Source: Balanoglossus misakiensis | Taxonomy: Eukaryota; Animalia; Hemichordata | Assembly: GCA_040954595.2 (NCBI GenBank) | Contig: CM082576.2 | Span: forward strand, 8,807,129-8,871,128 | DNA: 64,000 bases | Direction of reading: 5' to 3' | Shown here: positions 10,301 to 59,191 of the stretch, piece by piece | Layout of the letters: each line of letters begins with the position of its first letter | Numbering within the stretch: the first letter of the stretch is position 1 | Program-made: the position numbers and the translations under genes | Notes under the pieces: model-generated | Seen by the model: the letters and a program-made list of their open reading frames with translations, nothing else | Databases searched by the model: none | What the model was told of the DNA's origin: nothing

Positions 10301-11407
10301 CAAACGGAGGGCACAGTATTTTGAGAAGAATTATATAGTAAGACCAAAAGGTGAAATTTCACATTTTTTACTGACTTTTCTAATGCTGAAGTATGTCCTG
10401 CAAGTTCTGTCAAAAATTTGTGAAGAGAAAACAGAAAATATAAAGAGGATAAGCTAGAATGAGCATACCTTGACATATGATCTGTCTAATTCTAAAGCCT
10501 TGGAAGCATCCTCCAGAGCGTAGCCAAAACATTCCGTTTTGAGGTGGGCAAAACTTCGGTTTCCAAAATATGCCGCTACGGAGGGATTGAGTTCAATTGC
10601 TTTGGTGTAGTATGTAATGGCTTGTTGGTAATCTTGAGCTGAAATGGTAAAAGGGGGTTTCCATGGGGTCAAAAGTTGGTAGTTCACTGATTTTCAATCT
10701 ATAGACGGGGAAGTGGTACATGATAGGGCTGCAGACTCACAAGCAAAGCTGATATACATATATATGATTATCCATCTGCCCAAATGCATGTGACCTCTTT
10801 TACAGTGTCATGGAGGGGACTGGCAGTATAATAATCACTAGTTACTGTGTGCATAACTATTGTACTTTAGTAGTTACTAGTATATTAGACATTTTTTGTC
10901 AAATTGAAACATTAAACAAACACAGTTGTGTGGTTGTTTCACATTTGCAACACTTCATAGAAAACTGTTTTGAAATTGATCACTTGGAGACGGTGATCGT
11001 TTCTGATCTGGGGGGGGGGGGGGGCAGCTAGCAACTGAGCAAAGGTGCAGGTCTGAAAGAGAATATTTTTCCTACATGCACGCATGAGACTCAATCAAGC
11101 TTGCTATTCGGTGTCATGACCCCAGTCATACCCGTCATGTCCGACAGCATGCGGCTACGTGCGTTTACAATCATTTTACCGGTGTACATGAAGCATGGGC
11201 CTGAGGCTGAACTGTGAACACAGTTGTACACTGCCTGGCAAGTCACGGGGAAATGATCCCGCAAAGCAGATCATTACCTTTGAAAAACGTGTTCGCTTTT
11301 TCTTTCATTTCATCCGCTTGTGTCTTATCTTCTTCACTAATGACCAGATTTTGTACTCTACCGTTGATATTGTCATCCTTCCCGGATTCTTCCATGGTCG
11401 TCGCCAT
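7375..11407 (-). CDS. PPP5C: Serine/threonine protein phosphatase 5 (TPR + PPP catalytic domain), 499 aa; exons 11407-11278, 10638-10469, 10166-10095, 9992-9845, 9611-9490, 9348-9184, 8905-8800, 8635-8493, 8365-8278, 7958-7739, 7622-7544, 7431-7375
   Basis: TPRs ([38 protein letters not shown]); PPP motifs GDIHGQ, GDFVDRG, RGNHE, MHGGL, LWSDP, RSHE, SAPNYC; PP5 C-terminus [11 protein letters not shown]. The 12 exons total 1500 nt with consistent phases. Confidence 0.97.
8906..9183 (-). other. PPP5C: U12-type (minor spliceosome) GT-AG intron, PPP5C intron 6
   Basis: The 5' splice site reads GTATCCTTT. A branch sequence TTCCTTAAC lies about 12 nt before the CAG acceptor, with no real polypyrimidine tract. 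Both match the U12 consensus. Confidence 0.88.
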
Positions 11408-11530
11408 TTTGGGGTTGTTCAGTGTCAGTAGTCATGTGCATATCAGCGAGCGTGTTCAACAGCGCCCCTTCTGACAATGTCGTCTTTACATTTGTTTTTA
11501 ACTGGACACGCCCATCCGCGCTCGGGCGGG
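11408..11530 (-). promoter_or_regulatory. PPP5C proximal promoter/5'UTR
   Basis: A YY1-type CAAAATGGCG overlaps the ATG. A CpG-rich GC-box-like stretch lies at about 11509-11531. Confidence 0.4.
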
Positions 11531-15974: not shown

Positions 15975-16043
15975 CTACTGTTTTCTGAGAATGTCCTTTG
16001 CCCTTTTGTCGGCAGCTGTGATGCGGTCATCGAGGGATCCAGC
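15975..16043 (-). CDS. SNAP25: SNAP-25 alternative last exon 8e (most distal): [22 protein letters not shown]
   Basis: Pyrimidine tract + ttatag acceptor, phase 0. Keeps R191/I192/A195/R198/A199 equivalents and ends in TAG. Confidence 0.88.
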   Translation of the reverse strand, partial: AGSLDDRITAADKRAKDILRKQ

Positions 16044-19000
16044 CTATAACAAGGAGATGAGGACAGGGGGAAGAAGAAATAATAAATAATGGGGATAAAA
16101 ACAGAAATATGCCACACATACAAAAATACACGGGCGGACTGGATGGGAAGTACACTGGGAGGCATTTTAAGAAAGACAAAAAAAAAAGCCACTGCTATTT
16201 TTTCTGTTTGAATGGCCATTTCCCTTGCAGATGAAACACATGGTGATCAGCTATCACCAGAGCACATGATGAAAAAATTAAATATGCCCCATCGGCAATC
16301 ATTACTGATTCCGTCTTCAGCAGATTCTTTGCCAAGGTACACTTCATGCTATTTTGGTTTGTAATGAAAGGATCGGGAAAAAAAATTGCGCGCGCTCTAT
16401 GTAAATATTTGGATTAGACGAATCAAATTATTTCAAATTGAGCAATGAGAATTCAAAACAGCCGTCAATACCAGATTATTCATCTAAAGAATTTGAATTG
16501 CTGATATTTGTGAAAGCAAGTCGGCGAATGTTTGCATTTTTCACTTTAATCTTGGAAGTGACTGTGAAATCTAAAACAGATTGAAGCGAATGAAAACATG
16601 GTATGATCAGAAAAACTGCCATTTTCATTGAAACTGGTCTCTGACGTAAATTCATTACTCTCTCATATGCATATTGACGACGTCATGTGACGAGCTGTGT
16701 GACAACACACAATCTGGGATATTACAATTTACACTGCAACGCTGTTCCTATCCTCTCTTGACTATATTACATTATATTACAGCGTTGAATTCATTTGCAA
16801 GGATGTCAGGGGGCCACTCACACAAAAAAAATTCAGTTCATAACTATAGACCAGAAGAGAACATGCATTGTCCAATAGAAAATATGCGCATCAACATTGC
16901 GTACAAAAATTACGGTTGGATAAAAAGAACGAACAAATATATACAGATACATAAAAAATAAAACAACATCCAAATAAGAAACAGGAACACATCAGCTGCG
17001 ACTGGTAACCTAGGAAAATGGCACGTAGAGATTAAAGAGGAAATACAACAGAGAAAATATAAATTAATATTGGATATGGTACAGATGGGATGGGTGTGGA
17101 TGGGGGATAAAACGAAGTGGAGGTATAATGCCCTATGGATGAGAGCTTCTAAACTTACCACTACATGTTATTTTTTTTTTAACTTTTGGACAAATCTCTT
17201 TGCAGTGTTTAGTTGGTTTGACTCACAAGAACATTTCCGTTATGTTGTAAATCGCAGAAAAGAATGCATGGAAAGAGACAAAATGTTAAATGTAGATTTG
17301 GTGGAAGTGAGACGTCACATGGAAAATGAATAAAGGGGTCAGTATTTTGCGTCAGCTTCATAGGGCCATGAAGACATGAAATGATTAAAATGTGAAATGT
17401 TTGCTATTTCCCAGGTTCATGCAGCAACTCTAGTCCTTTAGCAGCTGTTCGGTACGCTTGGTGGCTATACCAATTCGGTCCACATTCAAGCGGCTCTGAA
17501 CATGGGCAATGCACAGTGAGCAGGTGCCAAGTTGGCCAATAGAAACAGACAAACACAAAGAAAGAAAGAAAGAAAAAAGGTCTTATTACTATGGGTAACC
17601 TACTGACAACTACGGAACAGCTACATGATCATAAGGTCAGGAAGTATTACTAAGTAAAGCAAGCGTTTTTTTTTTCAGTTTCAAAGAAGTCGAATAAATC
17701 TCAAAAAGATTTTCCGAAAGCAAAGGATGAAAGCTACACCTGGAAATCTTCACAATTATACTTAGCAATACTTCTATCATTAAATGCAGAATTACTCAAA
17801 AACAACTAGAATTCCAATATAAGATACATGTACATGATTATTAAGTGTGACAAAAGTGATGGTTGGTGTATCAGAACTTAAAAAAAAAAAAAAGAGCTGA
17901 AAGATGTATCTGGCAAATGCCTGGCATTATATATAGACATGAAGGTGGCATGGGCTGGGAAAACCCAGGATGCTGTAGTTCGAGTATGCATTGTGATGAC
18001 TATAGACAGATGTGCCCAATTCTATGAGAAGAGTCAAGTTGCAATACCAGAGTAAAAGTCATGCTTTTGTTTTTTGTGTATATATGCATTTATATTATCA
18101 TTTTGCTTAAATATGTTTTTTTTTTTTTTACCGGGTGATTTATAGAATGGTATACCGACAACAGAGTGCACTGATTTGAGATAACACGCCAAAGAACTGC
18201 CCAATGTCACGAGAGGTTTAGTATTAGTAAATATAGACACAGCAACAACCAGTTAATATGAGAGTGGGGGAAAGGAGAGAGAAAAAAAATAAAAATAAAA
18301 CACTAACAATAGTGAATGAAGTCAATAAATAGATTTAAAAAATATGCCGAGTCATCTGCTTCATGCATTGTGTTATTATTATTTTTTTGTTTTTTGTTCC
18401 CAGCCTCATGCAGCAACTTGGATCCTTTTTAGCTTTGGAGGATCTTGGTGGCCCGAGTGTTGGCCTGACCAATACGGGCAGCATTCAGCCGGCTCTGAGT
18501 TGACGGAATATACAAACCAGACGGGGAGGAAATCATAGAGGACAACAATGGACCAGCAGATATGCACACAGGAATAATAAACAGAAACAAAATTTCGTGG
18601 GGGGGGGGGAATAATGTACCACCAGATAGACACACACGCACACACAAAGAAAGAGAAAAAAGCTGTATTACCATAATGCACACTAATCATTGAGATGGGA
18701 GTCTACCACAGGAGGCATACAATATCTAAAGCACACAGCTTTTGCAAAAAGTCATGGTAAAAGCAGAAATAAACAAAAAATACACCGAAATTAATTTTCT
18801 TTCCTTATGGTGTATCAGCAGTGGGTCAAAATGAAAACCAAAAGTTCATTATTGTAAGTCATAACCATGGGATGAAAGCAAGGAGCTATGTGCTTACATA
18901 TTGCATACATTTCACAAAACTTTGAAAGCTTTGAATCAACTGTGATTATTTTTTTTTAAATAACGATGGAATTCGAAAAAACAGGAGCATAAAAGGGTAG

Positions 19001-22000
19001 AAAATGAAAAAAAAGCCCCGTCTGAAAATTAAATTCACAGGAAAAGTGGTTTAATGAATTATCTGAGGAGGGTTATAGTGGGATTGCGGGGTTTATATAA
19101 AAGTCACACTTCTAGATCATATGCTGAAGAAAGAGACACAGTATATAACCACAGGTGTGAGATCCTGACAGTTATGTTGGTGGTTATTTTGACATGCAGA
19201 TTGTATTTGAAAATCAACTATGTCTATCGTTTTCCTGGATGTCCAACAATTGAAAGGAGAGAGAGAGAAAGATGGAGACACAGATGATGGTGGTGGCAGT
19301 GGTGATGATGATGATGACGACGATTATGATGATAATGATGATGATGATGGTGGTAATGATGATGTAGCCTAAACAACTTTTAAGTAAAATGTGCCAGCAC
19401 ATAAGAAGGTTACTGTTAGTGAGTTGAAACTTCTGGAGAGGAGTGGACTTGACATGTGGCCGTGCACAATTTGTCTATAGACACTGGATTATGGCTTCGG
19501 CTTATCTTTATGAAGGATTTGACTTGCTCGGGTGTTAGCTTTCTCAATTCGTAAGACATTTGAAGAAGCCTGATAGAGGTAAGAAAAGAAGAAGTATAGA
19601 AGGAGAGAAAGTTGCAGTTCATGCTCAGTTGAAAAAAAGTTAGTCCAAAACAGCGACAAAAAATACATCACCACTACCGGTACAACCACAACTTTGACAC
19701 TTTTCCACAATTTGGGATGTGCGTATAGTTTTTACTTTTATTTTCAGGGGCTTACAATACGGGCAGTTCTTTGTGCACACGACATCTCCACTTTCAAAAA
19801 GTCACTAGACAAATGATCACGACAGCATCAAAAAGTGCTTTGTGCATAAGTGAGTCAGTAGTCTGGAGGAGTTGGAGGGGAGGGTTGGAGGCGAGAGATG
19901 ATTGAAGGTTTGGGGTTGATGACAGGAGGAGGAAGGAGGGGGTTGTATCAGGGCTGGGTATGAGGTGATGAACTGTGATGGCTGATAACCTGTGACTGGG
20001 ATTGTTATCAAAGAAAAAAGATTTGTAGAAGCACATAAAAAATAGCGCGGAAAATGTTGAAATTTAAATAGGAATAAAATGTAACTATTAATTTCAAAAG
20101 GGAAGCATTGATTCTATTACTAAGGTTAAATTGCAAGTTGGAGTTAGACTGGTCTCTAGAATGTTAGTTATAGGATTCATTATTTTTACTTGAAAATTTG
20201 ATGAAAAAAAGCCAAAATATCTTGTTGTATATTGACGGCATGTGTACACCCACTGAAAACACCACCGTTCCCTTGGTTGTTGTGCAGAAATGTGTGAGTG
20301 TACACAGTCTTGTCTTCATCATGCAGCAGTGAGCGTTTTCGATAAAAAAAATCCACACCTGTCCATGAGTGCACATACACATATTCGCATGCCTAGTCTT
20401 TGAGTAGTTTTGCTGCACGAGTGTTTGCAACCGTGAGACGTTGAACATTGGACTCAGCCTGATGGTTGGGTGCGTCAACAAAGTTTCGAGTGATAGAAAA
20501 AAAATTCATAAAAAATTCATAAAAAATAATTTCAAATCAAAATTTGAAAAAAAAGAGAAAGCAATAAAGACAGTTTGTCAGTACAAATTCATTTGAGATA
20601 ATGCAGAATCTGAAAAGAGCCTAGTAACTCTACTAAAGTTTTTAACTTTTTTTATTTAGACATCCCAGTCGGCACTAGAAGAAAAAAATCTCGAGTTTAT
20701 CAGATTTGTTGTTGGGGGAGATCATGATGGAAGATGATGGAAGAATGAAAAGATGAGATGATGAAAAGAAGAGTGTTGGAGGAACATCAGACAAGAAGAG
20801 AGCTAATATGGGAGGTCTGCTACAGTGCATCAATGTGTGAGACACAGACACAATCTACGGTACGGCAAACCGGTTCCAGACTGAAAATACCTTGCAGGCA
20901 AAAGACACACACTAAAGAGAGCGGCTAAGAGTGTGAGGAGAGAGAGACTGCGAGAGAGTTCTCCGAAGTCTAGATAAGTGCCACTCGAGGAGGCTATACA
21001 CACACTCGGTACAAGTTGACACAAGTCAATCACGATATTAATAAACACACGACGCAGTTGCCATGGTCACAAGAAACTTCCCTTTTAAGAGTGTTCTGGG
21101 GGCAGGGCGACGGGTGAGGAAAAACAAATGCATGGCAGACATTCAGTTTGATTTTTCTGCACTTTTATGAGGTTCCCTGATGATTTTCATGTGCATGTCT
21201 TGCTGAAAAAAAGTTACGGATTCCATCCATCCCTGTTTTTTCTGTAAATGGGATCACCCCAAGCATTTAAAAGGCAGCAGGCGGTTTGTACCAAATTGTG
21301 GTAGGGGAGACAGAAGTTACAGCTGACCATGGCACATACTGCGATGTTTTATTAATGTTAGTCACAGTTTCACAAGTTCTGTAATTATGCTACGTTGTCT
21401 AAGGTTCAGGATAAGTTAGGACTGGTTAGACTGAGTTGATAATAGTTACTGGTATTGGGTATTTGCTGCATCTACAAGTATAGAGATGAGGACGTAGTGT
21501 TGGGGGAATTTACGCCTACTGCGTGAGTGGGGGTAATTGCTGAAAAAACTGTTACGCTGAGTGACGCATCTACACAGTGGCAATCGTGATTCAATCTACA
21601 GAAGCAAAGATTATGGGGTGTGTTTAAAGAGGCAAACTATGAGAGTCTAAGTGGGACAGACCGGCAACAGCAACTACTGGAAAGAAAGACATATGTAAGT
21701 GCAGGGGTAGTGGGGAGACAATTCTCTTTTGAGTAAAAACGTCATGTGGTTCTGTACAGTTGTTTTACTTGATTCTGTGTAAGACAATTGCTGTGATGAC
21801 GGATTACTCTGAGAGAAATATCTCCCCACCAAAACATTCCCTACAGTTCACCGGACCTGCCAATAACGACAATAACCTCACCAGTCAGTGCACTGGAAAG
21901 GGGGAGGGGGGAAGAGGAGGGGATATGTAAACAGGCAGGAGCTCTCCTCCACTGTAATAAAATTCTATGACAACCATATCAATCTACATCGGCCCTATTA

Positions 22001-25000
22001 AAGAGACGGAGAGAGACAGTTAAGACCAACACAGTACTGAAGGACACATCCGTGCACAACATCACAGCCTTCAAAAACCAGGCATTCTCCGTGCTGTTGA
22101 ACAGAACACTATATCACCTAAAGGGAAAAACTTGTCAAACCAGGTGGGATTACACTGGGAGTGGGCGAGATCTGTATACTGCAGGCAATCTCAATCTCAA
22201 GCTGCTATCATGACGTTTGTGGGGTTTTCACAAACAGGAAGAGAAAAAAGGTAACCGTGAAAATAAATTGGTTTAATGGAGCAGCTTTTGAAGAGATTGT
22301 CTCAGCACACAAACAGAGATCAGTGTTACTATTTTCTCTGCGGCTATCACAGTTTTATCACTGTATCTTTTTTTGTAAATTTATATTCCCAGAAGTTGAA
22401 ATGTAACATTAGCAATCCAGAAGTTATTGGTTAAAAACAGGTATTCTTGACGTGCAATGAAAACAGTAACAAAGTCTGATCTTACGATAACAGGGGGGGG
22501 GGGGAGAACTAACAACAGGTAGTGGATGGTTACAGCATGGCAGACAGAACCTACCTTGTCATTGATGCGGTCAACCTGCTTGTTCTGCGCTTCAATTTCG
22601 TTGCCCATGTCAAGCGCCATGTGCCTCAAGTTGCCCACAATGCCAGTGACTTGTCCAAGGTTGTCGTCCATCTCGTCCTCCCTGGCATCATTAGTTATCC
22701 TGTCATAACACCACAAATGATGTAGTAAGTTCTATCAGTACAAACTGTATGAATTGTCCCACTAGCTGACTTCTCTATTTTTTGTTCACTGTATAACTCC
22801 CTTAGACACATTTTATCAGTGTTGTGCCATCAACATTGGCCAATGCAATGCAACTTGAATAATAGTTTGGCTGTGAATCCCACAAAGAATGAACACACAG
22901 AAAGTATGCCACATTTGATGCATTTAAATATTTTACAGTACCATCAGAAGAAAAATAAGCATATCTCTGAAGTTGCCAATACATTTTTTCGCATTTTGTT
23001 ATTATCATTGCTATTTTCTGGATACCGGTAAATTGTGGAAGCGAAAGTAAATTGTTTGATTATTTTTTGAGGGGTGGGGGCCCCCAGAAGCTGGGAGACT
23101 GACCTTGTGACAATAGTTGTTTGCCCAGTCAAGGCGTTCCTATCATCTGAAACCCTTGCCGGTTGACTTGACACCACTTTGCCATCTTCCGATGACTTCC
23201 ACGTCTTCTTGTAGTCATCACCCTTCTCAAAATTTCCAAAGCTGTTTAAAAAAAATCAATCAAAAGAATGAATTATAATCCTGAGTGCTTGCAATCTGGT
23301 TTATTCGAACAACTGGATGAATAATGTTTGGGACGTGGAGACAACATGCAAAACATGATACACATACAAACAAGCACTGAACCTCGTCTAACCATAAGTG
23401 TTATTGAACCTTAGTCTGACGCTTGCAGCAAAAATTTGTTTCCATTTTCTTGTCTCTAGTTATGTACACACGTCCGTCCATCCATCTTTAGTCGTGCTAA
23501 AACTACGGATGTAGCCAGGAAGTGTTACTCTACAACTATCCAGTATTCATGAGATGTGGCATGCTTCGGACAAAACTAAGGGTGAACATGGAACACTGAC
23601 AGCACACACACAAATACCCTGATGAGTTTTCTGAGCACTTTTCAACAGTAACTGAGTTATATGAAATCACAGCATTTGCCTTTTTTTGACTAATTCTGAA
23701 AGGTTTCTCAGCATGTATCCAATTGCTAACTTCTACTTAGCATCAATTTCATGATTTTGTAAAATCAATGAAAACTTAAAAATTGAACGACTGATGACAA
23801 TTTTTTTGTTATTTGCGTTTAAATCAGTTTTCATTAATATATGGATCTGGCTCATACCAACTGCAGAAATCTTAAACACAGCACATCTTTCATATTAATC
23901 AGCTGAGAGAATATTAATCATGAAGATCAGATTCATTTTGCTTTGGTCTGTGAAAATTTACAGCAGCTGGAGACTCATCCCAGTTACCGAGAAACTGTTG
24001 GGCGTGAACTCGCACGAAACTCAACCAAAATGGAATAAATCCCACACATTCCAGCAAAGATCAGCTATCAGACACATACACAGATTTGTGCGGATTAAAA
24101 AAAAAGAGAGTCAAAAAACATTATCTGTGGCTGTGCAGCTGGGAGTCTAAAACCCCACTCAGCAATGACAAATTACTCATTTCCTGCAAACTCCATTAAG
24201 CACACTGCTAAGTCAAGCTGCGGCTGGTTGTGACTCTAATAGCAGCGTGTGCCCAAAGTCATTAAGTTTTTCGGAGTCCAACACGACACAGACAAACTGG
24301 CTCCCCGATCGACCGACCGTGGTGTCTGTGTGTGTCGTGGAGTGATTTATCAGAGTATAAAGCAGTCCTCTCCAGAACGGAAACCCAAGCCCCATGCATT
24401 ATTCTTGTCGTGTGCAATCTGACAACCGTAATGCTCAAAATCTCTGCGAATCCAAATACTGGCTGTACGTGTAATTATGTTGACTGTACCTGATGGGAAT
24501 CCACTAACAAGACAAATAATAGTTTTGGATCAACCGACTTATATCACACAATTTATCATGCTCTACTGGGGGGGAAAGTGCACTGCATTCAAGTTCAGAC
24601 GGCTTGCCAGGAAATTACAAATTGGATGTTTTTTCTGTCTAAGTATTTCTGGTAATAGTGGCGTTCACACTAGACAGCTCTACTCTGGTCTTTGGATTGG
24701 CCCAATTCTATATACGGTACACAGGTCCAGGCCTGGGCAGGAGTATGTAGTTCGATCGACACAACTCAAGAAGTGGGATGGGCATAGACAGAAATCGTAT
24801 CCAAAAATTGTACATTAATTTAGGCCAGTTTTAGCACTCTTGTGCATGACCTTAAGAGCAACTATGAGGTTTCATGAGGAAATCGTTAATCATTACTGGC
24901 CACGTACGGAGACTTTCTTATTCTGAGAACACCCTGGATGCAGATTGAAATTTAGCTTGTACTAGATAACTGTGACCCTGTTCGGGCAACATCCTGTTTG

Positions 25001-28000
25001 CTGCCTGTGCCAAGGAGCACATTAATCAGAGTTTTCCCACAATCTGCACTCGATGTTTAGAGTAAAATCCGGACACTAACTGCGCTGTGGAGCGTCGACT
25101 CCCGATAAAAACACCCAACCGTTATCTCTTCAGAGATGGAACTGTGAATACTTACTTCTTGCACGGACAAACACACAATCCGCAGCACTTCTCCAGACCT
25201 GTCAGATTCTTCTCAGCCTCTCTCATATCAGTATTGATTTGGTCCATGCCTTCCTCGATACGATCCAATTGCTCTGCAAAACAATGCCAATATAGAACTT
25301 TCAGTTGGAGTTTCTGCACATTACCCTGGTCATGCAGCAATAACCATCTCCAGTACTGCAGCTTTGAGACACAAAATATCAAACATCTAGGTTAACATAG
25401 AGGCTTTAAATATTAGTTGCTATTTTATCTAATAGATGTAAACACCAAACTCTCGAGTTGCTAGTCTATTTTTACACTATTGTATAAATCCACTATCTAC
25501 ATTATAAATTCAACAGTATTTACTATTACCAATTTAAATATTTCAGTTAAATTCCTTCGATCTCTCTCACTCTGCACCTTCATCTTCAGTTTAACCACAA
25601 TGCATTCGATTTTCAAAATTTTGGAGACAATTGTTGATTTTGATGTAAAAAACAACAACAAAACTTACACACAGAAAGTTCAGGTCAGTTTTTCAGAGTT
25701 CTTCAAATTTATACACGTCCCCAAAATTTCAAATTTGAACACACGTGGCTAGACTGATGTGAATCCAAGAAACTGATTGGAGGATGTCCGAACTACTCAA
25801 TGCAAGGAGGGTAATTTCTCGCTATCCTGTTACAAATACTACTGCTAGTTCCTGAAATACACCAACAACAATAAAACAGAAGATCTTCTAACTAACTTTT
25901 TACCAATAGTATCTACAATAATGCACCAACTTCTCAAAAATGCAACTAACTACCATTAGAGTGCTTTAATAGTATTCAAACATATCAGTCCTTCGATCAT
26001 CATGCTAGCCAGAACGTCAAGCACACATTTGAATTACCAGACTGGTGCTATTCATTCTCCTACCGGTACTACCGTACTTGGGTGAGAATTGCTACATAAA
26101 CTAGTGACAGGGTGGATTCTAAATGCTAACACCATCACATCAGTATGTATCCAAAACATTTCCTATGCTTCAAACAATTGTGCCCTATATCTCCAACTGT
26201 CCATGCATCTAAAACACATAGGTCTAGCTAATTTACTGGCCCAGGTTTTTTTTAATGAAAGTATCTTTGGGAGAAGCAACAACTAAATTTAGTCCAGCAT
26301 AATGTGCAATTCATCATGAAATAAAATCCAGTATATCACGTTTAAATTGATATTATGTCCATCACAATACTAATGAACCATTTAATATGACCTTTGTGTT
26401 CAACGCTGATAGTCTAGTGAACTTTGCAGATGATAATCCATTACACCTTCCGGAGAATCGGCACTCTCCATTTTACTCAAGGGACGATGCATTTAGTATA
26501 ACCCTCGCAAATGTCTGATTCTATTTTTTCCCTTCAAATCTGCATCTGATGGTAAAGCGATGCAGTTGGGGGCATATTTTCCAGACTTTTATGTGACACT
26601 TCCAGCTGTGGACGTTGTTTAAAGAGACACTGCCATGCTTTGCTGTCTGAGCACTAGGTGATAACTTGTCTACAGGTCTTTCTTAGAAGATGAATGAAAT
26701 ACACCATCTGAAAAGCATGGATGATGTTGACATCGCAGGTATATTGCTTCATCCAGCAACATTTCATTCACATTTTGAGAGAAGTGTTCAGACACTGTCA
26801 CTGCCTCTAATTGGGTCATAATTTGGCTAATCACAAACTGTTCAACCTCAAAGAAATGGATTTATTGAAGGAGAAAAAAGAATAGCTGATGATACATTGA
26901 AATGTTTGGAAGGTGTAGCTTGAGTGGCATCTTGATATTAACCCTTTCACCACCATGGTTAAGCCCAAACCCATTGTTTTCTGTGGTAAGTTTGGACCTC
27001 TATAGAGTGAACGGGGGCGAAATGGTTATAAGCTGAGCTAGTTGCATTATTCGCAATATGTGCTGAATAAATTGTTTGGCAGAAGAGATTTCTGCAAACT
27101 GATGAGCATGATGAGTGGGTCATAGCAGCACAGTGACTCTGCTTTTCAGTCTGAAGGAAGTGAGGTCGACTGATTTCATTACGCTCAGACTTTAAACGGT
27201 GAAAAGTGGCATTGTTAAAGATGGTGCTTTTGGATGTAGCTATATGTGCTTTAAATCGCCATCAAATGGTGCTGAAAGCAGAACATGCCTTGGCTGTGCT
27301 CGACACTTTACAGCTGTGAATGAGCCATGCAATTATATTGTGCAGACTGGTTTGCTGGTAGTAAAAATGGGGAATTTCGAATTTCTGCGCATTGCATGCT
27401 CACATTAAAAAAAAAAAGATGGCCAAGCGACTCTTTCTACGACAGTGCACCTGAACAGCAGCAAGATTGCATTCGGTCAACGATCCAATTTTTTGCTATC
27501 TGTCGGTATGGGGGACACGAACGAGATCACGATGATCATGCAGCCTCATCTCCATGCGGGTCAGCATCTCAAAAGCAGATAGCATCGCACAGATACCGAG
27601 TGTTTTTCAAGTCCGCTGAGAATGTACATAAGTCCCCTCCATCTATGCCGTGACCTTGCTGTATTAATCCTCATTAAGACATATCTGACATCATCATCAT
27701 GTCCGTGTTATAGTTTCAATTCACACGCAGGAACGACATGGCGCTCCCGTTTGACATTTCACCCTTAGGCTAGTCGCGCGCGCACACAGACAGGAAGTTA
27801 CTCATGCATACTACAGAGAGCATACAACGTGCGCTAAACGATGCACAAACTTGGAATTTATAGCAGCGTGCATGATACATGTGACTACTCGAGAGAGATA
27901 GAGAGATGACTCTGCATGCATTAAAGTTGTCATTGGATAATTAAGCACAGCACGGCACACCAAACACCGATAACATGTAAGGGGTGGGGGTTTATTCATT

Positions 28001-31000
28001 TGCATATGAATATAAAGCAACCATCAATATTGAATTTTTTTTCTGCTTTTAAAAACTATAGTTAGTTCTTGTCTATGCTTTATTATAGATGCTGACAATA
28101 GAGTAGAAAAAGCAGACAAAAGACCTGCGTAATGGGTTGGACAATTTGCACATTAAGACAGCTAATGGGATGACAGTGTCAACTTAAATGGGACTATCAT
28201 CGCCACAGACCACAAAATACGTTGTGTGTAATCGCCAGACTACTTGCTTGAACAAGAAAAGAAAAAAACACTCAGGAACATAAAATGGGTGGAGGGGAGA
28301 GTTTCAAAAATAAATTAAAAACACTTTTGATCCGTCACCTCCTTGCTCATCCAACATTACAAGAGTGTTGATGCCAGCCTCTTTGCTCTGATGAAGTAAA
28401 GTAGAGCAGCAAGTGCAAGAGAGAGAGAAAAGAGAATATCAAGAGAAAGAGAGAGAAAAAAACAAATAATCTGTTTAGGAATACCGTATATAAATTGCAA
28501 ATGATTTCACCCAGTAATTACTGCACAAACGCAACATCCAGCCGTGATTTACAACTGCATACTCTTTGCTTTCATAGGTGTTTTTATGTCATACAGGAGT
28601 ATATTTTACGATTGATAGTTTGGGCAGTGTGTTGTTTTGCGCAGTAAGTACTGGGGGTGTGATGAGGCAATGTGCCTCAGTTCAGATATCCAAAGTCCTT
28701 ACCTCCTTGTTCATCCAACATAACTATAGTCTTGATACCCATATCCTGACTCTACAAAGTGTAAAATAACACGTACAGCAGGAACAAGCCACGGATAGGA
28801 GCAAAGAAACCAGGCACACATATAATATGAACGATAAACAAAAGAGGGGTTAGGATTCGGGGGAACTGGGGGGGGGGGGAGAAGGCTGGGGAGTGTGGTT
28901 GCTAGGTCGGATGGCTTAAAGATTGGTAGAATTACTGTAAAACATGAAATTTTCGCGAATGAAAAATTCTCCCGAACTTCCCGAGAGCCAGAAAAATGAG
29001 GAAATAAATTGACAGTGCAGTTAGTGAAATAACCTCTGTTCACCTCTGCGAAAATTTCCCATTTTACAGTACATGTATATATCAAAACTAAATGGCTGTT
29101 GGCAGCCCTTCAGTGAAATTTGAAATAGTTAAATCATAGAAAGGAATGTAATCTTGGTATTAAAAGAGTATATATCACACAGACATTTGACGTTCAAGTT
29201 AAAAAAAAAATCAGAGAGAACAGGATGATATACCATGTACGGTATGCTTCTGTAAAGAGTTCACACACATGCTACTTGTTGGCTTTCTACAATATATACA
29301 TGCATCCAAACACACACAGCCAACCAGCCACACAAGTGATGGCATATGGCATATTGACCCAATCAAAACATATGGTGAGCATTATTACTTCCAAATATTC
29401 ACAATACTGCAAATAATCAATAATATTGTCAAAACAAAAATGTGAAAACCACGCAGGCACAGTTTATAGAGCTTGCCATCAATCTAAATTCTTTCAATTT
29501 TCCAGTTTGTAGTTTGGCTTGCCTTTTATAACTGTATGTACTCTTGAAACAGTATTGAGGATTTATTTTGGTATTATTCCCTGACAACTATTAATACAAA
29601 TATGGCAGCTCGTTGGATGCGAAACTGGTGTGTGAATTGAGGCAGGGGGTCAGGGGCAACATGTATTCATGAGGCTAGGTCCAGTTTGTATCTGAATGCA
29701 ATGAAATAAAGTGCACTCAATATTAATACCCGAGGAATGATAATCAATCAGGATTAAGCTAGCATTTTAATCAATGAAGAATAAAGGTGCTATTATTTTT
29801 TCAAGGTGACACCTGTCATTGTCATTAACTTCATTCATCAATTCATAATAAAAATTTCTCTGCGTACAGGGAGATGGTACGACGGTTCTGCCCTTTATGT
29901 TTTAATGATCACAGTTTTTGACTGAAGTGGATGAATATATCTCGCAGAAGTGAAGTACTGTTGGGTTGAATGGAGGCCAGACTCAAGCCGTTAAAATCTA
30001 AGCTCTATTACTACTTCACTCCCCAAGAATCAACATGCAATGCCAGTCACATATCTGAGCCTCTATCAATGAGCTTACAGTCGGGTGAAACGCAAAGTGA
30101 TATGTGTAACTGCGGTCCATTTCACGTCATCAAAGTCAAGTCAGGTGACACAAGCCTTGCACATTAGCCATTTTACTTATGGGCAACTACATCATCTTAA
30201 GAGGTCAAGACAAGAAGTTTCCTTTTCAAACATTGATGAAGCCGCTAGTTTTGCGTCAGCAAAGTTTCTCAACTGGAACACTTAGAAAAACATCAATGCC
30301 GCTGTCATGGTGGAACAAGGGCCGATTTCATTAAAAGAAAAGACTTCAAGCACTGTGGATGAATATTAATAAGCTCCATCAAAAGTGAAAATGGGTAACT
30401 GAGATCTGACAGGGTAACAGAAAGAAGAATGTCTGGCTACTGCTTGGCAGTGGTCAACAAGGTGAATTCAATTTAATTTGGCAATTTTCAGGAGAATTAC
30501 CATCGCCTTCTGCTAGATTCTGCCTAAGTTAATTAGATTTCTGGACACTGTAATGTAGGATAATGTTTAATGATTTGTCAGAGTGATTAAATCTGAAATT
30601 TAACGTGGGCGGACCTGTCAATATCTGTTCAAAAATTAAAAAGTTAACAAAAAACGTAATTTCTCTCAGAATTGCCAGTCCAGCAACATGTGATCTGTCA
30701 GCTTAGATTACTAAAAATCTGTAACGTGACTGATTATGACAGATCTGACTGTCGAAAGGCATTAATGATTCATTCATGGGTTTTTAATTTCGCCATTTTC
30801 ACCAGATGATAAATCAATTCAAGCGAACCCCTGTGAAACTGTAAAAGAAATGGTAGAACGTATAGATTAATGGTAAAAATCAATGAATTTATAATTATAT
30901 GCCCCTAACACTGTAATAGCAAAATTAAATTCAAGTTAATTAGCATTGGTGTGTTTAGAGTATGTGGGAGTGACTACACTGCTAATTTAACGATAAATAT

Positions 31001-34000
31001 TATTATAGTTCAAGCATCCACTTAACTACATTTTTGCGTGAAACAAATTATAATTACCGGGTAGACCAAACATTTTTGGTTTGTTAATTCCTGATAGCCT
31101 TGTCCAAAGCCTACAACTGATCTTTCATATAGACGCAATGTTATTTGTTACTCTTACAATCTCACTAAATCAATTGAAAACTTTCAGCATGTACTTTGTG
31201 GTAACAAGCCAAAGTACACTTTTAGAGATTATTGATCCTGGCATCTCAATCAATGCATCGATGGCTTACACAACCCAATATCCACAACCGATCAATGTCG
31301 CTTGCAGTTTAGAATAACACCTAATGAATAATTCATGTCATATTATTGCACAAAATTGATGTGCAAATGTTTATTTTCGGGCATGAATCAAGCTTTCATC
31401 TTCCCCCCCCCCCCTTCATTTTTTACATCGTAAATTTAGCCTTGCTTTCAATACATCAGTCATAGTGACGTTACATGTGCATCTCTGAATTTGGCAAATA
31501 CTTTATGACATGGAAATGTCATAGCATTTGACTTGGTGGCATATGCCCATTCAAATTAGCTGTGATTCACACACCAATTTGCATTCATTATTTCACCAAA
31601 TGGAACAGTAATTGACCGACGTTTACCGCGACTTATTTTGTAACAGGTTAAAATCAGCATCCACCACTGATGAAAATCCTTTCTGGTTGAATATCATTTT
31701 GGCCGACATTAAATGTTTAGGATGCCCGTATCAATTCCTTTAACGGTACTTATCAGATGGCTATCAAATTATGGAAGCTTTTGTGTGGCTGGCACTGTGT
31801 AATACAGGAAACATTCACAATCATATCGAACATACTGGCTTACACTCAACGTAGCACACAGAGAATGGTGGAAAGAACACAGAAATGTAAAAGGAAGACT
31901 CTTGTATCCAAAGCTTGCACACACAAAACAATCTGGTCATAAAATGGACATTATATGTATAATTGCAAATTGGAAGTGATGTCCACCAACCTCTTCTGCC
32001 ATCTGCAGCATACGCCGTGTACTCTCCAGGGACTGCAGAAAAAGGGGAGAAAAAATGAAATAAATACTTGTGGACAAACATTTTGGGCAAAATTAGCCCA
32101 GTCTTGGATTTTAAGTATTTTGTAATAATTTGAAGTGTGTCCAGTTGAAGAATAGTTTGTAGAGTACTTCATACAGATACAGATTAAGTATACTAATGTG
32201 TACATTAGGTAATCACTAATACATCAATTGAAATAGTCTAATTTTTTCATTAACTGTTAAAACAAGCATTATGGCAGGTGTGAGAGATGTCTGGTACAGA
32301 TAAAAGATTCCATCATTTTCCCCCATGGCAAGCGATTGTTATGCAACCATGCCAATCCAAATTCAAAAGATGAATGCAGATGTATCACGCAACTCTCGTA
32401 CATATCATTTTGAACAATTCATTCATGCACCATTTTAAAATTCCAATCATAGCACATAAAAGTTATAAAAATTAAAATATGACTGTGCTTCACACTTCTT
32501 TTGTTCAAAGGCCTCTCAATATTTCATCCTGCTTTTTACCAGAAGATAACCCTTGCAATAACAGTAACAAGGCTAGTAAGAGGGAGTTGTATAAAATGTG
32601 ATTGGCTCCATCATGCAGGGAATATGCTACTTATAGTTGAGAGTGAAGATCATAAAAGAGGGAAAGAGTAGTTTTAACCCTTGGGGATTAAAACATTAGA
32701 TTATATGGGTTAATGTCTGGTTAGTCTTGATACCTTGCTTCCGGTAATTAAACCATCAAATGAAGCACTCGGTGATGCAAGTTATTTGGTTAAAATGTTT
32801 TAACACCATACACACGCTGATTGAAAGTGTGTACATTTATATGTATCACAGGTAAGGCTTTGATGTTGTGTTATAAAAGGGCAGTGCATCTGGGAATGAC
32901 TGAAATGTCAGCTGGACTGACATGTAACCAAGAAGGGTCCTCTTTGGTTAATCCATCTTTATCACAGTCTTTCTCCCGACAGATTTCTATTCTCAATTCA
33001 AGCCTTCATAACTGCTTGATAGTAAAGCAAACACTTGGAATTGACGTTTTATCAGACTTGGTATCTCCTACCACCAATTCAGCCAGCAGCACATTTCAAT
33101 TTCGCACAACGTACTGCCTACATGGTGACAAAGAATCTCTCAAGGTGAGAGAATTAAAGAAAGGGAAGTGACACATTGAAAGATGAGTGGGTGGTTGTTC
33201 CAAATGACTACGACTGCTCTTTTGGTACTGTTTTTTATTTTATTTTATCTCCCTAAGTGGTTGTAATCTACTACTACTTTATCACTGGTGGGGTTGGTAG
33301 ATGAATGATGTGCACGCTTCGCACATTACAATTTTTCATGATGACAAAAACTTCACGTTGCATCAAAATTTATTGTGACATGTGATTTTTCGTGAACAAT
33401 TAAAACTTGTTTCGTACATACCGGTATTACTAACTTATAGAATGTTAATCGTTTCCTGCATTCCAAGGATTTTTTTTTTGCACATGATATGCGTACATAT
33501 ATGCATGCATGTGTAGATCAAATTTGTACCACCTACACCACACTGTAAAATCTGGCTACTCATGTTCCTAAACCAATACATGTACCTCCTACAATTAGTA
33601 TGCGACTCAGGTGGTGTGCAGGGGATGGACATTATTGACATTTAGTGATCGCCATCAGGCATCTAAAGTGTAACAGCCACGATGACCACGACTGCCAGTC
33701 ATATTGGCTCAGTTCAAGTTTCTGACTGCAACAATCGATGGCATGAATAATAAAATATGACTTTTAGCCGCAATTGACATCAACTCATGGTTGTTATCCG
33801 CGAGGATCACAGCCAATGATGGATGCACTAATAGTTCTCATTTTATAACAAACATCCCCTGTGCATGATCTACATCACGTCTTTCCTGAATATTGACACA
33901 CTACATAAATTTGTTACGAATTACTTCTGACGACAAGCTCTTTTCATCAATTTATTGGCTCTGTGTGTCCTCTAATTCAAAGTATGCTGTCGCTCAGTGA

Positions 34001-40000: not shown

Positions 40001-43000
40001 TATTCTGTTTCAAACATAGTTAATGGACAAATTTACATGACTTCCGACTTGTTATGATGTGCAGAAGATGACTGCACCATCACACTAGGCAAACGCTGCC
40101 CACTAGATTTGAACATGCCAGAAAAAATGTCTTTGCAAATACCACCTGTACTGATTAATGTTAGTACAGCGCTTGATCCACAACCACATTCAATCAAAAG
40201 ATTAGATTTTTACAGCGGCAGATAAACATCTGCATTAGATGAATCTTTTCAAATGTACCCTGATAAACATCTGCATTAAACAAATCTGTTTAAATGTTAA
40301 ATTTGTACTAAAATAACTTTCATATCGTCACATCGTTGCTACACTTTTAAATCAACAAACTCTAACATGTGTTATTAAAATATACTGAGCAAATACTTTG
40401 CAAAGTAAGCACCATCTTTTTTACGTCAGAATTTCAATTACTTTTCCCAATGGAGCCTTTGAATTTGATCGAAATCGTTACAACAAACAGAAGGTGCTGT
40501 GCACTTGTGGGCATTGTGACAATTGTATTCCACTATTGATATAGATAAATTAGTGAAAAAATCAAGCCATGTACAACACAATTGTCACTTCCAACCAGAT
40601 GAACAGCTACATGTTATTGAAACAGCGACACAAAAGAGGACGGCAAAAGACACACAATGTGAATTTTGCATTAAACCATTTCCTGCTCCGGCTTTTGTGC
40701 CATGCGATAAAAACGGATGAATATCGTCACACTCCGTCGAGATGCAACCATCACTGAATACCCCATGGCACACAGTGTTACTGTCGGTTCGCTTGGTACC
40801 TTTGAAGCTTGGGCGTCAAAACACCACAGATGATTGGAGCCGAATAATATGCCAAACGTCTGTCGATACCATGAATGTGCAATGACAATAAAAAAAATTA
40901 ATTGAGATCAATTAATATTACCTCCAATATTTTGATATCACCTGGTCCAAGAGGCACTTCCTGTTTCTGAGTTTGTTCAGAGTCGGGGGTTTCATGATTT
41001 TCGGCCGGCATGACTGTGGTAATACAGTTTAGCCAACTATATATATATATATACAAAGTATATACTACCGCAAAAAATGTGGTAGCAAGATTCTCAATAA
41101 ATATGTATTTACAGCCCCAGAATGTCTGGGAAGGTACTCCACATGTCTTGGGAACGTTACCAGTACTGAGAATTCACACTCCTCGTGCTAAAAACAGCAC
41201 CATCTTCAGATCGACACGATCAAGTATTGAATGTGGTTTTTCAGCAATTAAGCATAAAAATTATCAAATCATGTGGTAGCAGTGATGATGATGATACACA
41301 CTATCCCACAAATAACTGCATCTGCCAGCGGATGATGACTTTATCCATGGATTTGTCCTGCGTCAAAGGCACCAGTTTTCCACAGACACCAGTCAGTCGT
41401 TGAGATTCCTCTTCAGAACGAGAAACGGCGTGTGTGCGTACAGGAGTGTCTGATTGTAGGCCACTACACGCTGCATAGTTTTCATTTGAGCTGACACTGG
41501 CATTCAAACTGCACCTGCTAAAGCATCAGTTGTACTCCTCCCCTTCCTCGTACGGCGAGACCCACGGACAGGATGAAACCTCCAAAAACAGCAGTTGAGA
41601 TGTAGAGCCACGATTCGTGTCAGACCGCACGATTGAGAAAACATGTGTGAACTTCTGGTGAAACAGCTAGCAAGCACATCGGTGGTACTTGTGATGCATG
41701 TCCACAATAACAGGATTCCTGATTAACGGCAGCGCTGGCCACACAGCGGATGTGACACTAATGTGCGTGGTAGTTTTTTTTTTTTTTTTACATAATTAGA
41801 ATAAAGTGGGCATATCCAATGAAATGTGCCTATAGATCTCACATTTGATAGTGCTGGATCATGCGGCAATTCATCAAACGTGACGGTATATGCTGATCAG
41901 TAAAGGATCATGACGATCAGAAACAGGGCCATTGTCTCCATTGGCGCTTGCACGAAGGAGATCAGGACGAGCAGACACAGAGCGATCTTCAGCGTCCAAT
42001 GCATTGACTTCCTACAGTGCGCTTATAGTGTTGCCTTCCACTTCAACGCTATGCATGTTCACACCCACAACAAAGGGGACGAACATGAATATTAAACAAC
42101 ATCACTGCACAGGCCTGCATAATTAGACACCAGGATTATACCCAGTTCCCGCCAGTGAAATGTATGCACTGCTGAACACGACTACTGCAGTGCGCTGCCA
42201 TGGAAACATCAATAAACCAATTGTATTGGCCGTGCACCTTTTATTTAGCTGGCTCAGCTCATCAAACGAGCTGCAATGTCTGCAAAAACGCAGAATGTAC
42301 ATCAATCTATATTTCTTTTTGATATTTGCATATATGTTGAGTGCGTCTCGATAGCAACCTGTGAATATTCATGATGGCATCTAGCTAATAATATCATCAT
42401 TCATGTTGAATGTTTCGCGCACAGGAATATTCACAGCAAGAGTGGCCTGTTTTCAGACATCCACCATACAGAAGTGTGCATGGAAGCAGCCAGGAATGTT
42501 CTGAATACGGAATCACGTTGAAGAGCTAAAGGCTTTTACCCCACACTTCCATAATGGCAGGCCGGCATGAATAATTGATATTAGGATCTCTCCTACGGCA
42601 ATAAAATGTTTCCAGAGTTTCTGTTGAAGCCGTCATAAAATTTTCAATTTGGTTTGGTATGCTCTACGGTTTTTAACAGTTCACGGACTGGGGAGAATGT
42701 CTGGCAAACCATTTTATGACAGACACGGCTTTAAATTTAAAGACATCGCCAACACAAACACTACATCAATGACTGGTTTTTAAAAATATCCTGGCTGCTT
42801 TGAGAAAAGACCACCTGTACACGTGTAATAAGTGTTTATTGAAATGACTTCGCAGAACATTTATTTCTGGCTTCTAAATATAAATTTAATGAATTTATTG
42901 CAGTTGTTTAATCTTTCCCCATGGAACTCCCATACATCTGCTTTGAATTTTAACCAAACATCGGCTGTGGGCAGTGGCTATTAGGCTAGCTTAAAAAATA

Positions 43001-53876: not shown

Positions 53877-54214
53877 AAAGATGAAGGTGGTGGTGGTGAT
53901 GGTGGTGGTGACAACGGAAACATGGTGAAGGTGCAGGTAGTATAAAATACTTATTTTGCAAAAACTGCCCAGTAACAAACACGATCACTCTGAAGAACTG
54001 CAGACATGTCTTAAGTTGCATCTGCCCTCCATCTTAGCATTCAATTATGAAAAGTTACCTCCTTCATGGAAACTTGTCTGCATCAGCAGCATAACACACT
54101 GGCCACAGGGGTATATGTTTCAAGCATATCAGCTAATCAACCTACCTCATCTGTAATTTGGTCTGATTTCTGCTGGAGAATCTCCAGCTCGGTGCGCATG
54201 TCATCCTCTTCCAT
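15975..54214 (-). CDS. SNAP25: Synaptosomal-associated protein 25/23 family (Qbc-SNARE), 208-213 aa depending on isoform; exons 54214-54146, 32032-31991, [28751-28703 OR 28387-28339], 25273-25156, 23241-23104, 22699-22555, then one of five last exons
   Basis: Spliced protein [122 protein letters not shown]. Exon sizes of 42/49/118/145 nt match the recalled vertebrate SNAP25 structure. Confidence 0.96.
17430..17495 (-). CDS. SNAP25: SNAP-25 alternative last exon 8d: [21 protein letters not shown]
   Basis: gttcag acceptor, phase 0, 66 nt. N188/R191/I192/A195/R198 register conserved; paralogous to 8c. Confidence 0.82.
   Translation of the reverse strand, partial: SRLNVDRIGIATKRTEQLLKD
18429..18494 (-). 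CDS. SNAP25: SNAP-25 alternative last exon 8c: [21 protein letters not shown]
   Basis: actcag acceptor, phase 0, 66 nt. ANTRATKIL corresponds to vertebrate ANQRATKML. Confidence 0.88.
   Translation of the reverse strand, partial: SRLNAARIGQANTRATKILQS
19489..19569 (-). CDS. SNAP25: SNAP-25 alternative last exon 8b: [26 protein letters not shown]
   Basis: Strong pyrimidine tract + tatcag acceptor, phase 0, 81 nt. Heptad register conserved, with a basic C-terminal extension. Confidence 0.88.
   Translation of the reverse strand, partial: ASSNVLRIEKANTRASQILHKDKPKP
20393..20458 (-). CDS. SNAP25: SNAP-25 alternative last exon 8a: [21 protein letters not shown]
   Basis: catcag acceptor, phase 0, 66 nt. 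Aligns with vertebrate [22 protein letters not shown]. Confidence 0.86.
   Translation of the reverse strand, partial: AESNVQRLTVANTRAAKLLKD
22555..22699 (-). CDS. SNAP25: SNAP-25 exon 7 (second SNARE motif up to INDK)
   Basis: acag|[49 protein letters not shown]|gtaggt, 145 nt. Confidence 0.96.
23104..23241 (-). CDS. SNAP25: SNAP-25 exon 6 (linker)
   Basis: acag|[48 protein letters not shown]|gtcagt; contains the QPARV motif. Confidence 0.93.
25156..25273 (-). CDS. SNAP25: SNAP-25 exon 5 (end of first SNARE motif + palmitoylated Cys cluster)
   Basis: gcag|[42 protein letters not shown]|gtaagt, 118 nt. Confidence 0.96.
26939..27028. mobile_element. Tiny (about 90 bp) degenerate MITE, possibly piggyBac-like
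   Basis: Left end TTAA-CCCTTTCACC; the right end reverse-complements to TAACCATTTCGCC (11/13 match). Confidence 0.4.
28339..28387 (-). CDS. SNAP25: SNAP-25 mutually exclusive exon 4b: [16 protein letters not shown](E), SNAP25-like
   Basis: catcag|...|gtgacg, 49 nt, phase 0/1; long upstream CU-rich tract. Confidence 0.92.
28703..28751 (-). CDS. SNAP25: SNAP-25 mutually exclusive exon 4a: [16 protein letters not shown](E), SNAP23-like
   Basis: ttgtag|...|gtaagg, 49 nt, phase 0/1; 36/49 nt identical to exon 4b by hand count. Confidence 0.92.
28935..29069. mobile_element. Small MITE with TA target-site duplication (Tc1/mariner-type)
   Basis: TIRs CTGTAAAACATGAAATTTTCGC / CTGTAAAATGGGAAATTTTCGC (19/22), flanked by TA on both sides. 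Confidence 0.7.
31991..32032 (-). CDS. SNAP25: SNAP-25 exon 3: [14 protein letters not shown]
   Basis: ttctgcag|42 nt|gttggt, phase 0/0; near-invariant SNAP-25 motif. Confidence 0.95.
38291..38461. repeat. Diverged direct repeat (about 65-nt unit, about 107-bp period) inside a probable old interspersed repeat
   Basis: tttgatata.gg.ccagttgcaaa...aaat.tg.agttgagccagtaatct occurs at 38291 and 38398. Confidence 0.6.
38841..38885. repeat. 18-bp perfect direct repeat
   Basis: GATTCCCACGGAGTGATG at 38841-38858 and 38868-38885. Confidence 0.7.
43424..44503. mobile_element. Non-autonomous hAT-superfamily DNA transposon (1080 bp)
   Basis: Perfect 8-bp TSD GTAGCAGC (43416-43423 and 44504-44511). TIRs CAGGGATCGCGTTA / CAGGGATTGCGCTA (12/14). 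Repeated subterminal GGGAC/GTCC motifs at both ends. No transposase ORF. Confidence 0.85.
49878..50146. repeat. Diverged direct repeat (about 85-nt unit, about 180-190-bp period)
   Basis: attcattgaaaaatattgcc...gttgacatttacag.acataaaca...cagtgacact at 49878-49966 and 50066-50146. Confidence 0.65.
51341..51470 (+). mobile_element. tRNA-derived SINE fragment (CORE-like)
   Basis: Pol III A box TGGCCTAGTGG (51348-51358) and B box GGTTCAAATCC (51392-51402), followed by a CORE-like tgttgtacccttaagcatgccacttt. No complete cloverleaf. Confidence 0.7.
51520..51799. repeat. Foldback palindrome (about 125-bp near-perfect inverted arms), probable MITE
   Basis: Left arm 51520-51663 reverse-complements to right arm 51674-51799, apart from an insertion of about 20 nt in the left arm and a few substitutions. 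Confidence 0.8.
53792..53876. repeat. (GAT/ATC)n microsatellite, about 28 units, followed by (GGT)n
   Basis: Read directly from the sequence. Confidence 0.95.
54146..54214 (-). CDS. SNAP25: SNAP-25 first coding exon: [23 protein letters not shown] (exon likely starts at 54320 with 5'UTR)
   Basis: Kozak gccATGG, donor GAG|gtaggt, probable acceptor ttcgcag| at 54321. Matches vertebrate [24 protein letters not shown]. Confidence 0.92.
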
Positions 54215-56354: not shown

Positions 56355-56533
56355 CAGTCAAACCTGTCTATAGTGGCCAGTCAAGGGACTTTACCAAACT
56401 GGCCTTTATAGACAGGTGGTCTTTATAGACAGGTTAATTTATACACGTGTAAATTGCACAGGGACTGTAACTAAGTGGTCACTATATAGAGGTGGTCACT
56501 ATATAGAGGTGGTCACTAACACAGGTTTGACTG
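56355..56533 (+). mobile_element. 179-bp Tc1/mariner(pogo)-type MITE, copy 1
   Basis: TIR CAGTCAAACCTGT...ACAGGTTTGACTG, TA TSD, internal 17-bp repeats GTGGTCACTATATAGAG. Confidence 0.9.
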
Positions 56534-58794: not shown

Positions 58795-58973
58795 CAGTCA
58801 AACCTGTGTTAGTGACCACCTCTATATAGTGACCACCTCTATATAGTGACCACTTAGTTACAGTCCCTGTGCAATTTACACGTGTATAAATTAACCTGTC
58901 TATAAAGACCACCTGTCTATAAAGGCCAGTTTGGTAAAGTCCCTTGACTGGCCACTATAGACAGGTTTGACTG
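58795..58973 (-). mobile_element. 179-bp MITE, copy 2 (inverted)
   Basis: Reverse complement reads identical to copy 1; TA TSD. Confidence 0.9.
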
Positions 58974-59012
58974 TACAAGGAAATCGCTTTTCGAAACACA
59001 ACCTGATAGGTA

Positions 59013-59191
59013 CAGTCAAACCTGTCTATAGTGGCCAGTCAAGGGACTTTACCAAACTGGCCTTTATAGACAGGTGGTCTTTATAGACAGGTTAATTTAT
59101 ACACGTGTAAATTGCACAGGGACTGTAACTAAGTGGTCACTATATAGAGGTGGTCACTATATAGAGGTGGTCACTAACACAGGTTTGACTG
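59013..59191 (+). mobile_element. 179-bp MITE, copy 3
   Basis: Reads identical to copy 1; TA TSD; 39 bp from copy 2. Confidence 0.9.

Follow-up and report, generated by a model that had tools for sequence, protein, structure and literature searches.

Several elements that bear on this locus are already established, namely mutually exclusive tandem exons, isoform separation between paralogues, the SNAP25 exon-5 switch, catalogue rows for a fly exon pair and annotated isoforms. Vertebrate SNAP25a and SNAP25b are formed with mutually exclusive exons 5a and 5b, as described in PMC2581893; the known vertebrate switch duplicates exon 5 and not exon 4, as a preliminary description of this DNA had also said, and exon 5 is single in the sequence analyzed here. 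For the fly, table S2 of PMC8797185 lists two 49-nt Snap25 exons with common flanks, DmeEX0006498 and DmeEX0006499, of which the upstream exon is classed as 'eMICsens' and the other as 'LowPSI', with less than 10% inclusion in all tissues. PMC9741552 has Snap25 in its tables S4/S5, where the event is classed against human SNAP25 as 'different region, convergent', and the fly exon pair is not mentioned in the main text of PMC8797185 or PMC9741552. Isoform separation after gene duplication has been described for CACNA1S/1F, CALU, MARVELD3, U2AF1 and the FYN family (PMC4494069), and SNAP25 and SNAP23 are absent from the main text of that paper. A literature search that covered papers outside subscription and the supplements of two papers found no account of a SNAP-25 exon-4 pair across phyla or as one bilaterian event, and none of such a pair surviving in hagfish or being linked to SNAP23 versus SNAP25.

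The window (the whole stretch of 64,000 nt of Balanoglossus misakiensis DNA that was analyzed) contains a SNAP-25/23 (Qbc SNARE) gene on the minus strand, which gives a 209-aa model with either of two exon-4 cassettes. Qbc SNAREs are expected to have two SNARE motifs and a cysteine-rich linker in a protein of the ~205-210 aa class, and this is what was found, with CCGLCVCPC in exon 5. The models with cassettes 4a and 4b are identical to Ptychodera isoforms P0125 and P0129 at 193/209 and 194/209 positions, respectively. PF00835 is carried by these matching Ptychodera SNAP25-like isoforms, and a Pfam search with exons 5 and 7 taken singly gave no match. The exon 7 protein shows 94% identity to Ptychodera flava SNAP25-like and 88% to Glandiceps and Saccoglossus, and the window is therefore closest to acorn worms. 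The exon map, in the direction of transcription, extends the earlier list by a second first coding exon and five last exons:

54146..54214, minus strand: first coding exon, corresponding to vertebrate exon 2, with its ATG at 54214; matches the N-terminus of Ptychodera isoforms
40922..41011, minus strand: alternative first coding exon of 90 nt in phase 0; Ptychodera and Saccoglossus isoforms have a homologous N-terminus
31991..32032, minus strand: exon 3, 42 nt, single copy
28703..28751, minus strand: exon 4a, Q40 (ancestral-type) cassette, 49 nt, phase 0/1
28388..28702, minus strand: 315-nt inter-cassette intron, with a predicted long stem and a UC-rich pyrimidine tract before 4b
28339..28387, minus strand: exon 4b, K40 (SNAP25-type) cassette, 49 nt, phase 0/1
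25156..25273, minus strand: exon 5, 118 nt, cysteine cluster, single copy
23104..23241, minus strand: exon 6, 138 nt
22555..22699, minus strand: exon 7, 145 nt, second SNARE motif
20393..20458, minus strand: alternative last exon 8a, with 21 aa in its coding part; Ptychodera isoforms have a counterpart
19489..19569, minus strand: candidate last exon 8b, 26 aa; not matched in any of 13 Ptychodera isoforms
18429..18494, minus strand: alternative last exon 8c, 21 aa
17430..17495, minus strand: alternative last exon 8d, 21 aa
15975..16043, minus strand: alternative last exon 8e, 22 aa; ending like amphioxus, cnidarian and Trichoplax proteins

The five alternative last exons (15975-20458, minus strand) encode the C-terminal end of the second SNARE helix, and four of these tandem exons have counterparts among the 13 Ptychodera isoforms. 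Alternative C-termini are present also in echinoderm, mollusc and insect isoforms, and alternative N-termini also in echinoderms and molluscs. With two first exons, two exon-4 cassettes and five last exons, up to 20 isoforms are possible. A Protein phosphatase 5 (PPP5C-like) gene lies directly downstream at ~4700-11410 on the minus strand (PF08321, PF00149 and TPR-like exons), followed by the start of a leucine-rich-repeat gene at ~726-2080 on the same strand. We take the latter to resemble LRRC57, the human copy of which presumably adjoins SNAP23; if both the identity and the human neighborhood are true, this would be conserved microsynteny. The long intron contains related 17-nt tandem arrays in both orientations, at 56400-56518 and 58810-59176, which probably represent a small mobile element.

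Tandem mutually exclusive exons are expected to be adjacent, homologous, equal in length and phase, and flanked by intact splice sites, and all of these properties are seen in the exon-4 pair. The coordinates given in the preliminary description for two 49-nt exons with AG/GT flanks, 315 nt apart (28751-28703 and 28387-28339, minus strand), were confirmed. The two exons are identical at 36/49 nucleotides and 11/16 amino acids, and no third copy of exon 4 was found in the window, where the next-best ungapped score is 19-22 versus 58 for the partner. Inclusion of both exons leads to a stop after 66 aa and omission of both to a stop after 53 aa, each far upstream of the last junction. Thus, as had been argued from the reading frame, the two exon-4 copies keep frame only one at a time.

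The five amino acid differences fall at residues 40, 41, 42, 45 and 47, none of them a layer position. The layer residues S39, G43, T46, L50 and Q53 are identical in both cassettes, as noted earlier, under the layer numbering that we take to apply to the first SNARE motif. Across 91 distinct exon-4 sequences the layer columns are the most conserved, with Q53 in all 91; the chance that five differences miss five layer positions is, on its own, ~0.11 (C(11,5)/C(16,5)). Because the zipper layers are unchanged, a cassette swap is predicted to leave SNARE assembly intact and would change the outer face (residues 40 and 47 and, in many Q cassettes, 51/52). The match counts of the preliminary description were reproduced: 4b agrees with mammalian SNAP25 (PDB chains) at 14/16 positions and 4a at 12/16, while a hand count against SNAP23 chain 1nhl_A gives 13/16 for 4a and 10/16 for 4b.

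The distribution of the pair was assessed in proteins taken from gene models (491 in total, 421 with a readable exon-4 slot). The search that had been proposed for other lineages located both exon types, as isoforms of a single gene, in models from hemichordates, echinoderms, hagfish, molluscs and insects. Q-type and K-type isoforms with identical flanks are annotated in Ptychodera, Glandiceps and Saccoglossus, and such Q/K pairs, again with identical flanks, also among echinoderms (asteroids, echinoids, one crinoid and one holothurian). Gastropods and bivalves have two to four exon-4 variants as isoforms, and bees and beetles have the K type together with one or two others. Both cassettes occur in one gene in the hagfishes Eptatretus and Myxine (gene models P0191/P0340 and P0341/P0342), as TQDTGVNTIVMLSEQG and a 16-residue K type identical to mammalian SNAP25 in PDB; the hagfish Q isoform also comes, in spliced form, from a Logan contig of 927 nt. 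Amphioxus gene models (four entries, three with a readable slot) contain the Q type only and no K type, and tunicate models have a hybrid exon 4 with Q40. In squid, the SNAP-25 chain of PDB 1l4a belongs to the K type. Fly Snap24 is also K type, and we take this gene to be broadly expressed or non-neural. Since cnidarian and Trichoplax proteins are Q type (5/5 rows), the comparison indicates that Q40 is the ancestral type and K the innovation.

The age of the duplication was addressed with residue profiles and with tests of fixed tree topologies. Leave-one-phylum-out profiles, trained on three phyla and tested on the fourth, sorted 31/31 invertebrate cassettes correctly, although this test is partly circular because the cassette labels were set by residue 40. 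The same profiles place 5/5 non-bilaterian exons on the Q side and 6/6 SNAP25-group exons on the K side. In AU tests (51 rows, 16 columns, six models), trees with 4a and 4b as sisters are rejected under all six models (p-AU below 0.001), separate per-clade duplications likewise under all six (p-AU 0.0006-0.02), and separate protostome and deuterostome origins, marginally, under five of six (p-AU 0.007-0.06). A recent 4a/4b duplication is ruled out by these tests, which bears out the earlier view that the duplication is ancient and not a recent lineage-specific event. As the tests speak against recent or per-phylum duplication, the bilaterian ancestor likely already had the pair. The cassette order is Q then K in the window, with K first in three insect gene models, and this difference requires an extra duplication or loss.

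The fate of the pair in vertebrates was examined with a backbone tree of 41 rows from which exon 4 had been removed. One clade (96/98) comprises SNAP25 together with a third SNAP25-like paralogue and two pairs of cyclostome genes. A second clade (100/99) consists of jawed-vertebrate SNAP23, and the two-cassette gene of hagfish, with its lamprey partner, joins SNAP23 at 85/80, below the starred level. The claim that SNAP25 kept the K-type cassette is well supported by the protein models, as K40 is present in 121/121 vertebrate SNAP25-group proteins. The third paralogue is all K type and occurs in sharks, fishes, coelacanth, amphibians and turtles (P0363, P0378, P0388, P0361, P0224). Isoform separation is expected to start from a pre-duplication gene with both exons, and such genes are found among the invertebrate and hagfish gene models. 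After the vertebrate gene duplication, the SNAP25 branch would have fixed the K cassette, and the SNAP23 branch would have retained both in hagfish and a single exon in jawed vertebrates. As a separate observation, SNAP25-group isoform pairs of shark, skate and lamprey differ in exon 5 (P0456/P0457, P0458/P0459, P0365/P0447). The exon-5 switch is therefore older than the bony-fish date given in PMC2581893; table S2 of PMC9741552 already dates it to vertebrates.

Residues of the exon-4 slot lie in or near the synaptotagmin primary interface. According to PMC8967716 and PMC9258623, SNAP-25A and SNAP-23 differ at this interface only by K40Q, L47I and V48T, and K40, D51 and E52 are named as important for it; the former paper thereby agrees with the earlier placement of K40 and L47 at or near the interface. 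Whether the three substitutions strengthen or weaken synaptotagmin binding is left open in PMC8967716, and both papers describe SNAP-23 as supporting a functional interface and Ca2+-triggered fusion with Syt2. A change at residue 48 shifts spontaneous versus evoked release, and V48F alters both SNARE association and Syt1 binding (PMC10911398). Across the exon-4 sequences, residue 40 is the most consistent cassette difference. D51 together with an acidic residue at 52 is intact in 28/30 distinct K40 exons versus 40/61 others (Fisher p = 0.004, from sequences that are not independent), and D51 or the acid at 52 is lost in 21/61 non-K exons versus 2/30 K40 exons. The proposal that splicing acts on the Ca2+-sensor face stands insofar as residues 40 and 47 are swapped, but the word 'toggle' is too strong and tuning is more likely, because SNAP-23 still works with synaptotagmin-2. 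By its residues, the exon-4 choice would fit a graded tuning of the sensor face.

Splice signals differ between the two cassettes. The 100 nt at the 4b acceptor contain 19 UCUC/CUCU words, versus 0-4 at ten other acceptors, along with three UGC and an 83-nt AG-free zone, and the 4b donor is weaker (GAG/GTGACG). Upstream of 4b a CUAAY branch point is absent, with only UUGAU at -55; 4a has a 114-nt AG-free zone, CUAAC at -102 and a better branch-point motif than 4b. Relative to the eMIC code of PMC8797185 section 10 (long AG-free zone, UCUC, UGC, CUAAY), 4b appears to have a neural (eMIC/PTB-like) splice signature that matches most of the code except CUAAY. The inter-cassette intron has a fold z of -4.24, with 0/100 shuffles as low, which is below all 33 other 315-nt intron windows (lowest -3.0; 12 shuffles each). 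The stem formed by the arms 28510-28529 / 28636-28655 may shorten the path from the 4a donor to the 4b branch point, to ~70-105 nt by our estimate. Simple steric exclusion was ruled out, as the 4b branch-point motif at -55 is ~260 nt from the 4a donor. A search of 27800-29600 for competing docking/selector pairings gave nothing clear beyond the intron stem and a second stem upstream of 4a. The second is an inverted repeat of 24 nt (28933-28956 / 29048-29071, 88%) located ~180 nt upstream of 4a.

These observations suggest a mechanism in which 4a would be the ancestral default exon and 4b would be included where high neural activity of the SRRM3/4 type (eMIC) coincides with low PTB-type repression at the UC-rich tract. 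Double or null transcripts would be cleared by nonsense-mediated decay, perhaps aided by the intron stem. The isoform pairs of relatives and the fly table rows indirectly favor splicing of each exon singly, and the eMIC-sensitive fly row indirectly favors eMIC-dependent neural inclusion of 4b. The explanation that we regard as reasonably probable is that this tandem exon-4 pair, frame-true one at a time and likely of single bilaterian origin, gives neurons a predicted preference for the K40 cassette 4b, which would tune rather than switch on synaptotagmin binding. Several points stand against it: gene models of amphioxus and tunicates, animals with fast synapses, show the Q type and a Q40 hybrid, respectively, fly Snap24 is K type, and the insect order is reversed. 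In addition, 4a also has a long AG-free zone with the better branch point, and SNAP-23 works with Syt2. A more far-reaching scenario, possible but rather doubtful, is that the bilaterian ancestor used one SNAP-25 gene for fast neuronal and general secretion through an eMIC/SRRM exon-4 swap, by which the ancestral Q40 protein gained a K40 synaptotagmin face specific to neurons. Duplication of the vertebrate genome would then have frozen K in SNAP25 and Q in SNAP23, with hagfish halfway.

Other readings of the pair were weighed against these. That one exon-4 copy is dead in this organism seems hardly credible, as splice sites are intact in both and their proteins match annotated isoforms of three other hemichordates (4b identical, 4a at 15/16). 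Convergent tandem duplication might have produced the K cassette more than once, with independent origins at least in protostomes and deuterostomes. The opposite order in insects and the window would fit this, as would the extra copies in molluscs and insects, where the exon evidently duplicates readily, the frequent convergence reported in PMC9741552 section 15 and the mere 16 columns available for tree tests. However, K exons hardly differ between insects, hagfish and mammals, per-clade duplication is rejected in 6/6 models and the two-origin tree in 5/6, and we consider convergence improbable. The origin of SNAP23 exon 4 is much more evenly balanced. The preliminary description had each vertebrate paralogue keeping one ancestral cassette; the SNAP25 half stands (K, 121/121), and for SNAP23 the evidence is split, with profiles and parsimony for a Q origin and likelihood against. 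By profile, 16/17 SNAP23 rows are on the Q side, several near zero, and parsimony requires 85 steps for a Q origin versus 86 for a K origin. Many fish SNAP23 rows have T42 and V44 in common with the hagfish Q cassette, and the combination of K40 with A or S at 42, found in 119/121 SNAP25-group proteins, occurs in 0/60 SNAP23. Likelihood places a K origin ahead by 0.2-2.1 lnL in 9/9 runs, although never significantly (AU). On that reading, an ancient pair left its K cassette in SNAP25 and also in jawed-vertebrate SNAP23, where it drifted to be Q-like (K40 to R, then Q in tetrapods), so that the paralogues would not be a partition of two ancestral cassettes. It also draws on the long SNAP23 stem (0.22 overall in the backbone tree), on the lamprey SNAP23-branch gene, annotated with K only, and on the sawfish, coelacanth and sturgeon proteins, which have R or K at 40 and L47. 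We see this K origin as plausible, somewhat short of an even chance, and the single exon 4 of jawed-vertebrate SNAP23 as probably, by a slight preference, the Q cassette. Q40/K45/I47 cannot be called diagnostic for SNAP23, as had been proposed: Q40 is present in only 36/60 SNAP23 (R in 14, K in 7, H in 3; fish SNAP23 is often R or K), and echinoderm Q cassettes have L47. Because of this variability at residue 40 and the L47 of echinoderm Q cassettes, and because of the sawfish, coelacanth and sturgeon residues, part of the match between 4a and human SNAP23, including Q40/I47, may be convergent.

A further reading accepts a real and ancient switch and assigns it to another partner or property, such as alpha-SNAP, complexin, syntaxin choice, assembly kinetics or developmental timing, and not to synaptotagmin in neurons. 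Three of the five differences (41, 42 and 45) are outside the interface residues named in PMC8967716, the Q40/I47 protein still works with Syt2 and V48F changes SNARE association too (PMC10911398); the K type of fly Snap24 points the same way. Against this, the cassettes differ most consistently at residue 40, D51/E52 are lost mainly from non-K exons and 4b has the neural-type splice signature, and we regard another partner as fairly unlikely. Tuning of the synaptotagmin face remains the preferred reading, and it would offer testable answers to how one SNAP-25 gene serves fast synaptic release and ordinary secretion in invertebrates, and to the source of the SNAP25 versus SNAP23 difference. 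The exchange of positions 40/47, in many phyla and with the rest of the protein unchanged, amounts to a clean natural experiment.

When the locus is compared with known systems, exon 4b resembles the eMIC neural exons of PMC8797185 in being short, with a long AG-free zone, a UCUC-rich tract and UGC near the acceptor, but it is a mutually exclusive substitution rather than a frame-preserving cassette, and is without CUAAY. With the cases in PMC4494069 it shares an ancestral gene with two homologous exons of which paralogues keep one; in contrast, the exon-4 pair is likely of bilaterian age and is missing from every jawed-vertebrate copy sampled, and the SNAP23 half of the separation is only slightly more likely than not. 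SNAP25a/b (PMC2581893) belongs to the same gene family and likewise has tandem homologous exons, used singly, in the first SNARE helix region. That switch, however, concerns exon 5, of 118 nt with the cysteine cluster, whereas the window pair is exon 4, is older and changes the synaptotagmin-facing residues 40-52. The closest counterpart is the fly Snap25 pair, with the same gene, 49-nt length, common flanking junctions and one eMIC-sensitive exon, although it is known from supplement rows and the order in insects appears reversed. By the insect cassette order, the upstream, eMIC-sensitive fly exon would be the K type. It is very likely that the fly pair and the window pair are the same event, which would turn the fly Snap25 switch from a convergent oddity into an ancestral event lost by jawed vertebrates.
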